Shown: positions 17,386-24,702 of the stretch, one piece after another
Layout of the letters: each line of letters starts with the position of its first letter
Numbering within the stretch: the stretch's first letter is position 1
Source of the DNA: a plasmid
Strand: one strand, 5' to 3'
DNA: 24,702 nt
Sequence record: NZ_CP023150.1
The notes under the pieces: generated by a model
Database searches by the model: none
Told to the model about the DNA's origin: nothing
What the model saw: only the letters and a program-made list of their open reading frames with translations
Made by a program: the position numbers and the translations under genes

Positions 17386-20214
17386 CTATAGTTCGAGGCC
17401 GTAATCGAGGCCCTGGTCGCGGCGATCACGGCTGAGGTGTTGGTTGATCCAGCGGTCGCGCTCGAGGGCCTGCTCGACGCGCTGATCATGCCGATGCCGG
17501 TAGGCGGCCCGTCGCCCCTGTAGGGCGTTGGCGCGCCGGATCAGCAGGCTTTGGACGTGTTCGGGCAGCTGCTCGCGGTCCTGGGCTTGGGCGGCGATGT
17601 CGTGGGCGGTGCGGGCCCGCTCGTCGCGGGTGCCGATGATGCTGCGGACGAGTTGGGCGGCCTGGGCGCTGGTGCCGCGGCGCGCCACGTGCACACCGGG
17701 CTCCTGGGTGTGTTCGTGTTCGGTTTCGCCGGCGATCCGCTCATACAAGTACGCATGGTTGGTGTCGCGGCCGCGGGTCACCGCAACGTAAAGCAGGTTG
17801 CGGCTGGTGTTTTCGCCGAGCACGGCATGGGTGGTGTCGGCGGTGACCCCTTGGGCCGAATGCACGGTGACCGCATAGCCGTGGTGAATGTGCTGGTGGA
17901 GGTAGTCGCCGGAGAACACGGTGCGGGCGCCGTCGTCGAGGCGCCGCGCGGCGATGCGCTGATGCTCGGGGTCGACGGCCAGGACGCGCCAGCGTTGGCC
18001 GTTGCGCACCGGATCGGCTGCGGGGGTGTTGATGTCGGCGGCATCGAACACCGCAATGTCCGGGTCGTTGCGCCGGCTGATGATCACATCGCCCTTGGCG
18101 ATGCGATGTCCGCGCCCGGCGGTCACCGTGAGCGCCTCGGCGCCGATGGTCTGGTCGTGGATGCGCCGATTGAGCGCATCGGCCATCTCTTTGGTGTCAC
18201 AGATCAGCAGGGCGTCTTTGCCCGCGGCGACATCTGCCCGGTACGCCTGCAGGGCGTCGGCGGCCATGGCGATCGGATCCCCGGTGTGCAGCCGGTCATG
18301 GGCCCGGTACCAGTCGACGGCGCGGCGCACCGGGGCCGGCCCACCATCCCGGACCGCGAGGGAGGCAGTGCGTTCGTCGGGGTCGCGCATCCGCCACACT
18401 TCGGAGAGCTTCTGCGTCCAGGGCAGATCGGCGCAGAGTTGGGCGAACATGCCCCCACGGGCTTTGACGGGCGCCAGTTGGTGGGCGTCGCCGACGAGCA
18501 CGGTCTTGGTGTGTGCGGCGGTGGTCGCGGCCAACAGCCGGCGCAGCTCGTCGGTGCCGATCATGCCGGCTTCATCGACGATCACCAGGTCCAGATGGCC
18601 TAACGTCAAGCTGCCGTCGGCAAGTGATTTGAGGGCTTTGGCGACGGTGTAGCCGGTGGTACCGGCGCCTTCTCGGACGGCGACGTCGACGGCTTTGCCG
18701 GTGGGTGCTACCACGATCACCCGGGCCGTAAACCGCCGCCGCGCCATCGCGGCCAGCGCCCGCATGGAGGTGGTTTTGCCGGCCCCGGCCGGCGCGCTCA
18801 ACGGGCACACCAGCTGCGCCGTGGTGGCGATGTTGGTGACGGCGCGGGCCTGATCCGCCGACAAGCCGGTGGTGTCGTGCTCGCGCACCCACAGTTGCGC
18901 GCGCGGATCGGCGGCATCGACGAGGTCCAGGACGGCTTGTTCCTCATTGAGGAATGCTTCCAGGGTGAAGCGTTCATGGCCTTCGCGCTGATGCGCTGCC
19001 CGTGGTGCGGTCAGCCGCAGGCCGAGTGCGTCGACGGCGGCCTCCACCAACTGTCGCGGGCCGCGGTCGGTGTCGACGGGCAGTTGCGCGCCGATCAGCT
19101 CCACCAGATCCGCGCGGGTGAATGCCGCCTTGTCCATCGCCTCGGCGGCCGCCAACAGCCGCCGCCGATTCAGCGGTGCTTTGGCCGCGGCGCGCTGCGC
19201 GCGCCGCGCCTTCCGCGCCTCCAAAAACGCTGCGCGATCCAGCCGCAAACCGCGCGCATCCTCGCGCCACATCTGCGCCAGTTGCGGCCAAGCGAGTTGT
19301 TCGGGTTTGGTCGGCCGGGTGGCCTTTTGCGCGGCCGCCAACTGCGCCGCCGACACCTTCGCGCCGTCGACGACGACCAAATTGTTCGCGGCCCACTCGC
19401 GCAGCGCACTGGAGCGCTGCGACCACGCACTGATGCTCGCCGCGGTGATGCCGGCGAGCTCGGCCATCCCCGTTCCCGGGTCGACCGGCGCCCACTCCAA
19501 CCCGAGTGCGCGCTGCAGTTCGCGCCGCAGGGTGGCTTGATAAATCACGCCCGCCGCGCGGGCTTCGTGATACAGCGACGTGCCATCAAGCGAGACGAGT
19601 TTGCCGTCGGCACGGGCTTGCCGGTTGGGCACGATCACATGGGTGTGTAGGTGCGGATCCCCCGCCCGGCTGGTCTCGTGCTGGTAGGCGATCGCCACCA
19701 ACCCCGGCAACCGAACGAGGTCTTTTTCGCCGGTGCCCGGGTTATGTACCCGGGTGTATCCGGCATGGGCGGCGAGGTACTCCATCGCCTCGGCGATGGC
19801 GGTGGTGTGCGCGGCCAGGACGGCTTTGTCGGCCACCTCGTCGCCGCGCAGCGCACGCACCAACGACACACTCTTGGGCGCGCAAAACGTCAAATCAAAC
19901 CCATGCACCCCGCGCCGGCCGAACCCGCGCCCGCACGCCCCGTTGGGCGCTACACCGTCGTCGAGCCAGCGCGCCACCACCGCCGGATCAGCCTCCCCAC
20001 CGGCCCGCTGCACATCGCTCAACCCCACCAACGCGGCGGCCTTGTGCGCGTCGCCGACGCACACCCACACCGGCGCCCGCGTGTCGCATTCGGAGTAGTA
20101 CTCACCCAACCCACCGTTGGCACGCTGCGCATCTTTGGCGGCTTGGCCGGCCGCCCGCGCGGTGTCGTTGTAGTAGTTGATCGACCAGCGCGACAACTTC
20201 GCGATCGTCAACAT
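17386..20214 (-). CDS. traA: MOBF-family conjugative relaxase/helicase (TrwC/TraA-like)
   Basis: The relaxase N-terminus is MLTIAKL...INYYND (catalytic Tyr pair). The 3-His motif is [12 protein letters not shown]. The RecD-like helicase has Walker [11 protein letters not shown] and DEAGM. The ORF extends to 20328, but the relaxase fold starts at ATG 20214. Confidence 0.85.
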
Positions 20215-20451
20215 AGCCACCACCTGCCGCGCGGTTCCAGCCGTCCGGACCGGCGGCTGCTGCTGGCACACGGGAGTGTGCCAGCAGTCACCATCGCACA
20301 GCTTTGTGCAAATGTGCCGTAGCGACACGCGGGGCTGGGAAAATGGTTGCTGGGTGGGGCCAGCGGTAGGGGCCGAGGGGAAGCCCTGGTGTGCAGGGGA
20401 TTTGGCAAAAGGTGAGGCGGATAAACCTGCGGAAGGGTTGGCTGGACGGTT

Positions 20452-20727
20452 ATGGCGGTAGGTGATGGTGACGAGCTGGCTGGGCTGTGGCGCACCGTCG
20501 ACGAACTATCCGCCGACCTACCGGCGCCCGACCGGCGCGCCGTGCGCAACGCCATCGCCAACAGCGTCCTGGAAGGTCACCAGCCCACCGCCGACCAGAT
20601 CGGCCGCCTGGTGGCGTTCGCGGCAGGAAAGATCAGCATGGCCGACTACCTCACCTACGTCACGCAGACCGCCAAGACCGACACTGGCCAAGCGCCGCGA
20701 ACAAACCGATTTTCGGACGAAAGTTAG
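20452..20727 (+). CDS. VbhA-like antitoxin-family small protein (Fic-inhibitory S/TxxxE(G) motif), no cognate Fic seen
   Basis: The sequence [36 protein letters not shown] matches the VbhA pattern (...LEG...S.E...GEIS.DE.). There is no Fic-domain ORF in the window. Confidence 0.4.
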
Positions 20728-21071
20728 AACGGCTACCGAAGCCCTTCAGTAGCCGCGGCGGCCGCGCTGACTGGTGCGACCCACACGTCACCGCGACACC
20801 GGGTTGGGCACCCCGCGCGGGGTGATGATGGGAGCACCACGCCGCTCGCGGCGCTAAAAGCGAAGGAAACGCAAAACCAATTGAGTGTCGAGGCGAACTT
20901 GACCGAGTATTTGGTGCGCCGCGCACACCCGGGTGGTGAGGGTGTGCTCGACTGGCTGGTGTACGCAACACCGCTAGCACGGCTGCCGCGCCTCGACGTG
21001 GCGTGCTGCGATCAGCGCGCCTGGCCGGACATCGGCAACCGCTAGCGCAGCGGCCCGGGCCCGGCCCCGCG

Positions 21072-24464: not shown

Positions 24465-24530
24465 AGGATTAGTTAGAGTAGCTAGGCATGCTAGCTTTGC
24501 TCACCTAGCTAGGCTAGCATGGCTACCTTA
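24465..24530. repeat. Cluster of CTAGC/GCTAGC repeats upstream of parA (operator/centromere candidate)
   Basis: gtagctagg, tgctagctt, cctagctagg, gctagcatggctacc. A third cluster lies at 23370-23398. Confidence 0.5.
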
Positions 24531-24649
24531 GTTGTGCTGCACCACGCTGTGCAGGGTGTTTGGGCGTCGTGCGCGAGCTGCGTTGCGTGTGGGTGCGTTG
24601 AGCACTTACACTTGCTTTGTAGCCAGCCCATCGCGGTGGGTTTGGAAGT

Positions 24650-24701
24650 GAGCCACAGGATTACTCGCCGGACGACGAGGCCTGTGGCTCGCGGTTTTTT
24701 T
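24650..24701 (+). terminator. Rho-independent terminator on the plus strand: 10-bp stem GAGCCACAGG/CCTGTGGCTC followed by GCGG-TTTTTTT
   Basis: Read directly. There is a perfect 10-bp stem and a 7-U tract. No plus-strand CDS is evident upstream. Confidence 0.55.
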
Positions 24702-24702
24702 G

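Follow-up and report, generated by a model that had tools for sequence, protein, structure and literature searches.

The 24,702-nt stretch of sequence record NZ_CP023150.1 analysed here in full (hereafter, the window) holds, between positions 17386 and 24702, a relaxase gene, a rep-like gene preceded by a small gene, a ParA gene with its partner and arrays of short repeats. The question that this locus raises is whether it is the backbone of a plasmid or part of an element integrated in a chromosome, and by which parts it would be replicated, partitioned and transferred. The best explanation, in which we have good confidence, is that the window is a whole low-copy circular plasmid of the pVT2 family, equipped with replication, partition and mobilisation modules. 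The data behind this explanation are gene families, synteny, circularity, the enrichment of the repeats, the covariation of repeats and partner protein, and the covariation within a set of hairpins. That the locus is a plasmid backbone is correct and already known in kind; uncharacterised so far are the partition partner, its candidate centromere of 9-bp GCTAGC units, the likely origin of transfer (oriT) and a structured element beside rep.

A complete circular plasmid of the pVT2 family

A megablast search of PLSDB with the whole window returned one record with full coverage, pFLAC0181_CHOP101 (NZ_CP040248.1), a closed circle of 24,608 bp from Mycobacterium avium subsp. hominissuis that MOB-suite types as mobilizable, MOBF and rep_cluster_578. 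The window is a circular permutation of this plasmid, and gene order and cargo are common to both. No terminal overlap was found between the two ends of the window; its last 300 and first 300 nt, joined into a 600-nt sequence, are unbroken and 100% identical in pFLAC0181_CHOP101. Identity to pFLAC0181_CHOP101 is 100% over positions 1-17704 and about 20040-24702, the exception being 2.3 kb within the relaxase gene, mobF.

The backbone at 17390-22470 is 81% identical to that of pVT2 (NC_005016.1), the founder of one of the two classical homology groups among small M. avium plasmids. The two plasmids have in common a core made of mobF, a vbhA-like gene, rep and a ribbon-helix-helix (RHH) gene. 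They differ in the partition genes, the ParA of pVT2 (207 aa) being unrelated and paired with a protein of 149 aa; GCTAGC arrays were not seen in pVT2, where conservation beyond the rep module is poor. The literature on pVT2 describes a relaxase, otherwise no transfer genes, and probably the need for a helper plasmid. Together with pMUM001, pVT2 has been assigned to the pMSC262 replicon family (Shintani et al. 2015; PMC4379921). The window thus represents an entire circular plasmid and belongs to the pVT2 family already described from the M. avium complex.

The first-pass annotation, made from the sequence alone, had described the locus as a maintenance backbone of the plasmid or integrative and conjugative element (ICE) kind, and the cargo to its left as likely plasmid-borne or on an integrated element. 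The plasmid half of this description is upheld by the closed-plasmid match, the identity across the junction and the gene families; the relaxase, the RHH/rep-like pair, the ParA and its partner, and the three repeat clusters all lie at or near the positions given there, and the cargo genes sit on the same closed circle as the backbone. The other half, according to which the segment is an ICE or a genomic island integrated in a mycobacterial chromosome, is barely credible. Although the wide spread of the family and the few homologues of the partner protein on megabase-sized contigs could be read in its favour, the junction of the window occurs uninterrupted, at 100% identity, in a closed circular plasmid of 24.6 kb, and no integrase, att repeats, tRNA flank or chromosomal flank was found in the window or among the reference annotations, a serine resolvase being the only recombinase. 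For practical purposes, the integrated element is excluded.

A type Ib-like partition locus with GCTAGC arrays

The putative partition locus occupies the right-hand end of the window and comprises the following features.

23663-24445, minus strand: parA, encoding a 260-aa Walker-type ATPase (AAA_31, 2.6e-33; CbiA, 3.5e-17)
23391-23666, minus strand: gene of a 91-aa candidate centromere-binding protein (the partner), directly after parA
24466-24528: cluster C, about seven 9-bp GCTAGC units, 21-83 nt upstream of parA
23369-23395: cluster B, three 9-bp GCTAGC units straddling the stop codon of the partner gene
23122-23157: cluster A, four 9-bp GCTAGC units, downstream (in the orientation of the operon) of a 61-aa open reading frame (ORF)
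23166-23351, minus strand: the 61-aa ORF between clusters A and B, a hypothetical protein in pFLAC0181_CHOP101

ParA bears a deviant Walker A motif, KGGVGKT, at residues 12-18 and has no N-terminal helix-turn-helix (HTH) domain; the closest solved structures are those of Thermus Soj and of a ParA family protein. The parA stop codon overlaps the start of the partner gene in ATGA. PLSDB has homologues of the partner on 68 plasmids, which come from Rhodococcus, Dietzia, Gordonia, Mycobacterium and Nocardia; the partner gene directly follows that of a ParA of about 260 aa in every one of the ten loci fetched. An exhaustive search with a hidden Markov model recovered only 45 cluster representatives among 1.84 billion for the partner family, which is therefore small. 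Its alignments show a basic, conserved N-terminus (RKPAITR..HPAD..P.R in the window; R-x-P-A-[IL]-x-R..H-P-A..L-P-x-R in the family), a variable Pro/Ala/Thr linker in the middle and a C-terminal domain, likewise conserved, of some 50 aa, for which AlphaFold2 predicts an extended segment followed by two helices (strand-helix-helix; pLDDT 80-87).

The locus had been described earlier as a ParA/ParG-like pair. The ParA and the gene overlap are as described, whereas the likeness to ParG comes down to a weak profile match. Pfam and NCBIfam hold no family for the 91-aa protein, which has no match to the Pfam ParG or omega families; searches of PDB profiles with the partner family gave only hits of E 4.8 and E 0.48, and both structure searches returned nothing. 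In hhalign comparisons with ParG (1P94), the family scored a probability of 13% with profile A1 and 3.6% with profile A2, so that neither Pfam nor hhalign places the partner among the sequence relatives of ParG of TP228. The comparison with omega aligned the partner profile in the RHH register (probability 56%, P 1.1e-4), and an RHH fold is what we would predict for the partner.

The repeats are strongly concentrated. Twelve of the 30 CTAG tetramers of the window fall within 183 bp of clusters, against an expectation of 0.13 (Poisson P = 6e-20), and CTAGC has 39 matches window-wide compared with 24.6 +/- 4.7 in shuffles. The three clusters reported in the first-pass annotation are thus real, whereas the helical spacing (10-11 bp) attributed to them is not, the measured period being 9 bp. 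Clusters A and B form an inverted pair, the arms of which are 83% complementary. The 61-aa ORF that they enclose is acidic and without a Pfam or NCBIfam match; it has a homologue in an M. kubicae plasmid, which lacks the distal array.

The distribution of the arrays links them to the partition genes. GCTAGC arrays stand upstream of parA in eight loci of Mycobacterium, Nocardia, Dietzia and Gordonia, most of which also have one at the stop codon of the partner gene, at the same position in the Mycobacterium, Nocardia and Gordonia loci. In three Rhodococcus loci, GCA[CT]GC or GCACGC arrays take their place, with the 9-bp phase kept in one (L014), and in these loci the predicted recognition strand of the partner reads THNTRI[KR]PS, as against QHNVR[IL]RPS in the GCTAGC loci. 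Such covariation is the pattern that would be expected of an RHH protein reading the major groove with its N-terminal strand, and since the repeats change along with the strand of the partner, they are tied to the par proteins and not to Rep. In plasmid pGA1 of Rhodococcus sp. GA1 (L016), the par locus of which is a distant homologue, three tandem units of about 72 bp, rich in GCACGC/CCACGC, make up the region upstream of parA, so that the presumed centromere has another higher-order arrangement there.

With its small Walker ParA without an HTH domain, a small partner encoded directly downstream and adjoining repeat arrays, the system has the make-up of a type Ib-like partition system. As short repeats adjoining a par operon, the GCTAGC arrays qualify, at the level of sequence, as a candidate centromere. 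The nearest characterised analogue of the repeats and the partner is pCXC100 of Leifsonia xyli (3NO7), likewise an actinobacterial plasmid with a small Walker ParA and unspaced 9-bp repeats. Its ParB, an RHH protein of the actinobacterial type Ib, cooperatively coats nine unspaced 9-bp repeats with a footprint period of 9.0 bp (PMC3074162) and, like the partner, is small and combines a flexible N-terminal region with a C-terminal DNA-binding domain. In pCXC100 the repeat, AGNTGGAAA, is not a palindrome and forms a single array of nine, whereas the window has a palindromic GCTAGC core and two or three arrays flanking the operon; 3NO7 is absent from the PDB matches of profiles A1 and A2, and no sequence similarity to pCXC100 ParB was detectable.

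In two further type Ib systems, delta/omega (pSM19035, 1IRQ) and ParF/ParG (TP228, 1P94), the ATPase is activated by the unstructured N-terminal tail of an RHH centromere-binding protein, and the centromere sites also serve as operators; omega binds 7-bp heptads, unlike the 9-bp units of the window plasmid. The parABS locus of mycobacteriophage RedRock (PMC7157519) likewise works in mycobacteria, and its two parS loci, which are arrays of short direct repeats, flank parAB; its repeats are 8 bp long, and the likeness is one of analogy, not of homology. Identity with a phage parABS of the RedRock type was rejected because a search of 50,697 phage records gave no homologue of the 91-aa partner; ParA is about 30-35% identical to phage ParAs.

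For this module, as for the other two, we infer the binding, nicking and regulatory steps from such features. The C-terminal strand-helix-helix of the partner would form an RHH dimer that reads GCTAGC hexamers in a 9-bp phase, and dimers would cover both the array that precedes parA and the one at the operon's 3' end, like pCXC100 ParB on its repeats. The conserved basic N-terminal peptide would stimulate the ATPase activity of ParA, as the tails of ParG and omega do, and the array upstream of parA, overlapping the likely promoter, would also provide for autoregulation.

Beside this locus, a promoter-like sequence, TTGACC-18-TAGAGT, on the plus strand of 24450-24702 faces away from parA and crosses cluster C, and a long inverted repeat near the end of the window (about 24651-24691) is followed by TTTTTTT. 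The two could yield a divergent transcript of about 200 nt or act as a bidirectional terminator.

The MOBF relaxase and a candidate origin of transfer

Mobilisation would involve the following features, the last of them a neighbouring gene.

17386-20214, minus strand: mobF, encoding a 942-aa MOBF relaxase-helicase (TrwC, AAA_30, UvrD_C_2, NCBIfam MobF)
20260-20287, plus strand: inverted repeat with a 12-bp stem, candidate recognition hairpin (stems at the same site in relatives)
20294-20330, plus strand: conserved 37-nt block TCGCACAGCTTTGTGCAAATGTGCCGTAGCGACACGC, candidate nic region (conservation of a 15-mer)
20452-20727, plus strand: gene of a small VbhA-like protein, divergent from mobF (Pfam VbhA, PF18495)

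The mobF ORF spans 17386-20328 on the minus strand. The ATG at 20214 is the likely start, preferred because the resulting 942 aa is the length annotated in pVT2 and because the NCBIfam MobF model begins there. The relaxase domain matches Pfam TrwC (3.8e-61) and NCBIfam MobF (6.9e-76; 255.7 bits, cutoff 100), the helicase domain matches AAA_30 (6e-52) and, at its cutoff, UvrD_C_2, and the PDB relatives of the relaxase are F TraI and R388 TrwC. Two tyrosine pairs, Y14Y15 (NYYND from 13) and Y39Y40 (EYYSE from 38), the histidine triad of motif III, in a 14-residue motif at 179-192, a Walker A at 474 and a Walker B, VIVDEAG, at 544 can be read from the protein; these motifs correspond to those of TrwC in its numbering. 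With its relaxase domain, motifs and C-terminal SF1B helicase domain, the protein is a MOBF relaxase of the TrwC/TraI family, and the tyrosine pair, three histidines and helicase motifs that the first-pass annotation had named are all present.

R388 TrwC and F TraI have the same two-domain relaxase-helicase architecture and the same motifs. In contrast to R388 and F, the window plasmid has no trwB-like coupling protein and no type IV secretion system (T4SS): neither a coupling protein nor mating-pair formation genes were found among the 26 annotated genes of pFLAC0181_CHOP101 or in Pfam scans of the window. Self-transmissibility in mycobacteria involves a type IV coupling protein and T4SS-like plus ESX genes. 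Lacking a coupling protein and a mating-pair apparatus, the plasmid is therefore mobilizable and not self-transmissible. The earlier description of a full maintenance and transfer core thus holds for maintenance but not for transfer, the relaxase being the sole transfer gene, and the type that MOB-suite gives to the family is likewise mobilizable, MOBF, rep_cluster_578.

The inverted repeat and the conserved block lie in the 237 bp that separate mobF from the divergently oriented VbhA-like gene, and the block is near-invariant in a backbone alignment of the window and six family members. A 15-mer from its centre (20304-20318) was scanned across the GTDB genomes. Exact copies occur in 24 actinobacterial contigs, and in all but one of these (23/24) a MobF gene begins at a distance of 50-125 nt and with a constant relative orientation; most of the MobF genes concerned match the full N-domain with 64-83% amino acid identity, and a few are partial, the locus being cut. 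The remaining 96 loci with the 15-mer are chance matches in unrelated phyla. Perfect stems of 10-14 bp, differing in sequence, end 11-16 nt before TTGTGC in 9 of the 28 unique loci, a stem of at least 8 bp being present in just 1.2% of control windows.

A variable recognition hairpin and a conserved nic region near the relaxase gene make up a canonical oriT (PMC4853378); in R388 and F, too, the inverted repeat lies a few nt 5' of the conserved nic region and near the relaxase gene. As the hairpin and the conserved block beside mobF follow this layout, we propose 20260-20330 as the best oriT candidate. The region 22826-23165, where the first-pass annotation had suggested searching for oriT, does have inverted repeats and promoter-like sites, yet no other part of the backbone is so poorly conserved (column identity 0.17-0.6 in the family alignment), and it was rejected as the best candidate. 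In the proposed mobilisation, the relaxase would nick at the hairpin and block, 46-116 nt upstream of its own start codon, and transfer would depend on a co-resident conjugative plasmid.

The interior of mobF (17705-20040) is where the window and pFLAC0181_CHOP101 part, with 64-84% identity and a 90-bp indel at 17705-17794. The best PLSDB match to this interior is the mobF of an M. kubicae plasmid, at 89%. The gene is a mosaic, which reflects either allelic exchange between co-resident family members or a chimeric assembly in one of the two records.

The small protein encoded opposite mobF matches VbhA PF18495 with 4.5e-8 and 33.4 bits (cutoff 25.9). Its gene is kept between mobF and rep, in synteny over the pVT2-family plasmids, and no FIC-domain partner was found among the plasmid annotations. 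The protein, which is FIC-antitoxin-like, may be an orphan antitoxin or an immunity factor.

The replication module and its structured element

To the right of the VbhA-like gene lie the candidate components of the replicon.

21072-22253, minus strand: rep, encoding a pMSC262/pMUM001-family initiator with an HTH (HTH_36, 1.6e-5; homology to Rep proteins)
22330-22436, plus strand: structured element made of TCTAGAAC, 17 nt, TACCGT, three hairpins (22364-22428) and a U-run (conservation and covariation)
22434-22453: ATTGAGCTGTCACATCTGCC motif just past the hairpins, present in the short and long classes of the element
22508-22708, minus strand: gene of a putative 66-aa RHH protein, directly upstream of rep (profile matches)

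The rep gene is taken from the GTG start used in RefSeq, the ORF being open to 22376. Rep shows 81-86% identity to the Reps of the pVT2 family, 55% to the pMUM001 protein at 22-834 and 56% to a protein annotated "replication protein Rep" on an M. avium plasmid of 195 kb; with plasmid proteins of Rhodococcus and Nocardia entered as "replication protein", the identity is 36-38%. The MOB-suite rep type is rep_cluster_578. These relationships support the assignment of the HTH protein as a replication initiator of the pMSC262 family.

The 66-aa protein is plausibly an RHH protein. The top three PDB matches of its family profile (28 homologues) are Arc (0.011), AvtR (0.018) and MazE7 (0.16), and the matches are all RHH, all in register and all sub-threshold; those to Pfam (FitA-like RHH, NikA-like and RHH families) fall below the cutoffs. 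Of the CopG-like RHH gene upstream of a rep-like ORF that had been annotated earlier, the position is confirmed, while the likeness to CopG is one of fold, through these sub-threshold matches. The order RHH-rep-mobF recurs in pMM23. The protein could be a Cop-like repressor, for which its synteny with rep speaks, a relaxosome accessory factor or an orphan antitoxin.

Between the stop codon of the RHH gene (22508) and the start of rep, on the strand opposite rep, lies the structured element, which is conserved in 14 plasmids of at least four MOB-suite rep clusters, pMM23 and pMUM001 included. Read from 5' to 3', its promoter-like part consists of TCTAGAAC, a 17-nt spacer, the first 11-12 nt of which are variable, and TACCGT within an invariant TGCGCTACCGTGAGA. 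The hairpins are, in order, a stem with seven different sequences, one of the C(UUCG)G type and a long hairpin followed by the U-run. This last hairpin is terminator-like in a terminator scan, and the U-run follows it on the plus strand in 14 of 14 plasmids. In a longer class of the element two extra hairpins are inserted, so that there are three to five hairpins overall. As to its location elsewhere, the element lies at about 173800-173942 on the minus strand of pMUM001 and across the record start in pMM23.

RNAalifold recovered only two short helices from the raw MAFFT alignment, which mixed the two length classes; a hand-specified structure was therefore used for the covariation test. In this structure 89.8% of cells are paired, compared with 28-50% with slid partners, and 12 cells have changed on both sides, compared with 0-3 in the slid controls; the covariation score of 0.318 was reached by none of 500 shuffles. 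The fold has a dG of -32.4 and a z of -2.1. An Rfam scan of 17000-24702 gave chance-level matches only and no family for the element.

The element may function as a regulatory RNA or belong to the origin of replication, its possible forms being a countertranscript, a primer RNA and origin DNA. The conserved noncoding stretch 22330-22453 is a candidate origin, and the ATTGAGCTGTCACATCTGCC motif is possibly a Rep site or an origin motif. By analogy, a copy-number countertranscript is an attractive reading, the layout resembling that of copG-RNAII-repB in pMV158 (PMC4485353, PMC5717011): in both, rep is preceded on its own strand by a small gene for an RHH protein (a putative one in the window), and in the window an intergenic promoter and terminator on the opposite strand would yield a short structured RNA. 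In contrast to pMV158, the window Rep is an unrelated initiator of the pMSC262 family, and the RNA, its target and the cotranscription of the RHH gene with rep are putative. Among the papers searched, none on an antisense RNA in mycobacterial plasmid replication was found. In the proposed mechanism, the RHH protein and the hairpin array would form a dual control circuit of the pMV158 type, or the array would be part of the origin.

Alternative explanations

Several points weigh against parts of the model set out above and have to be considered together with the rival explanations. The conserved block next to mobF might serve as a promoter or an operator instead of a nic region, and its resemblance to the nic sequence of R388 is a presumed one. 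For mobF itself, we regard it as rather unlikely that the divergent 2.3 kb is an assembly chimera of co-resident pVT2-family plasmids and not a true recombinant allele: strains of the M. avium complex often hold several plasmids with related mobF, and the breakpoints lie within a conserved gene, a place where short-read assemblers can switch paths, but the frame is open over both junctions for 942 aa, and it is the reference record that has a short-annotated mobF and an overlapping small ORF. At the partition locus, cluster A is absent from the M. kubicae homologue, and the three clusters are therefore not a feature of the family. The GCTAGC arrays might also be no centromere, and serve only as transcriptional operators of the par operon or as Rep iterons, which we hold to be quite improbable. 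Cluster C does overlap the likely promoter region of parA, RHH proteins are classic repressors, and short-repeat arrays in the neighbourhood of rep genes often prove to be iterons. The arrays, however, accompany the genes of ParA and its partner and not rep: the rep module is kept in pVT2 and in other family members with a different ParA pair, which are poorly conserved beyond this module and in which no arrays were seen, while arrays occur on plasmids of Nocardia, Dietzia and Gordonia with another MOB-suite replicon type or none. In addition, the second array is at the 3' end of the operon, where a promoter is not expected, and in type Ib systems operator and centromere are normally the same sites (PMC3074162). 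A candidate centromere thus remains our preferred reading of the arrays.

Beside rep, the choice is less clear-cut. It seems somewhat doubtful that the 66-aa RHH protein acts in the relaxosome as an accessory factor of the TrwA/NikA type, or as an orphan antitoxin, instead of regulating rep in a Cop-like manner. Weak matches to NikA-like (E 0.014) and NCBIfam MobA (0.029) point in that direction, as do homologues labelled "toxin-antitoxin system" or "HicB family antitoxin" in databases, the precedent of R388 TrwA, an RHH accessory nicking protein (PMC4853378), and the presence of mobF on every inspected plasmid with the RHH gene. Nevertheless, the gene invariably precedes rep directly and in the same orientation, some 2 kb away from the candidate oriT, the order RHH-rep-mobF is maintained in pMM23, no toxin gene adjoins it, and the sub-threshold RHH matches are uninformative on function. 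In pMUM001, which is non-mobilizable, the element is present upstream of repA, but no RHH gene was found upstream there, a further difference from pMV158. The element therefore need not be paired with the RHH protein, and it belongs to the replicon. A serious contender, to which we give rather less than an even chance, is that the hairpin array, instead of encoding a separate antisense RNA, belongs to the replication origin as a DNA feature or is a structure of the rep mRNA leader. In line with it, conserved motifs upstream of rep in pMSC262-family plasmids have been treated as origin signatures (PMC4378964, PMC7157519), and the strand test on folding energy was null (8/14, p 0.58). The predicted transcription start also faces away from rep, so that an antisense overlap needs a distal rep promoter, and overlap with the rep mRNA is putative. 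On the other side, the plus strand is conserved in the manner of a promoter, with the -35 kept, the 17-nt spacer variable and TACCGT kept; the last hairpin is followed by the U-run on that strand in all 14 plasmids; and the stems are maintained by compensatory changes, as is typical of RNA.

Implications

Joining the two modules, we tentatively propose, with somewhat less than even confidence in the combination, a compact centromere-binding family confined to plasmids of Mycobacteriales and a conserved structured RNA beside rep in replicons of the pMSC262 family. Within this joint proposal, two residues of the recognition strand appear, from the alignments, to switch specificity, QHNV going with GCTAGC and THNT with GCA[CT]GC while the 9-bp phase is kept, and the rep-adjacent RNA may be present in replicons that include the M. 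ulcerans virulence (mycolactone) plasmid pMUM001. If so, this RNA would set copy number or prime replication, and it would displace the current view of the sequences upstream of rep as origin motifs. The par cassette with its simple GCTAGC repeats would be of use in building stable low-copy vectors for mycobacteria and in predicting incompatibility, as would the predicted oriT and the possible copy-number element common with pMUM001. The covariation of repeat and protein offers a small natural experiment on the change of specificity in strand-reading DNA-binding proteins.

Cargo genes and the resolvase

Pfam supports, at the level of families, the earlier description of the cargo, the families being as named. 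Features of this part of the window are as follows.

Cargo region: two Pyr_redox_2/FCSD-type flavoproteins (SQR-like; Pfam)
Cargo region: YgaP-like membrane protein (Pfam)
Cargo region: metal-sensitive repressor of the CsoR family (CsoR/CstR-type; Pfam)
Cargo region: MmpS and MmpL (Pfam)
Cargo region: PLP-dependent cysteine synthase (Pfam)
Cargo region: PPE protein (Pfam)
Cargo region: DUF326 four-helix copper protein (Pfam), the cargo including copper-binding proteins
5182-7017, plus strand: MFS transporter of 611 aa (MFS_1, 4.6e-38)
9052-9618, minus strand: serine resolvase (Resolvase, 7e-34; HTH_7, 1.7e-8)

Sulfide, cysteine, MmpL and copper modules thus ride on a small mobilizable plasmid that circulates in the M. 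avium complex and related species, the plasmid family that carries them being already in databases and the literature. No gene is listed at the MFS ORF (5182-7017) in the PLSDB table of pFLAC0181_CHOP101, a table that omits pseudogenes and is incomplete. The serine resolvase probably serves the resolution of multimers, a backbone function amid cargo genes, although it may instead take part in cargo shuffling; resolvases are likewise present on pMM23 and pGD42-2.

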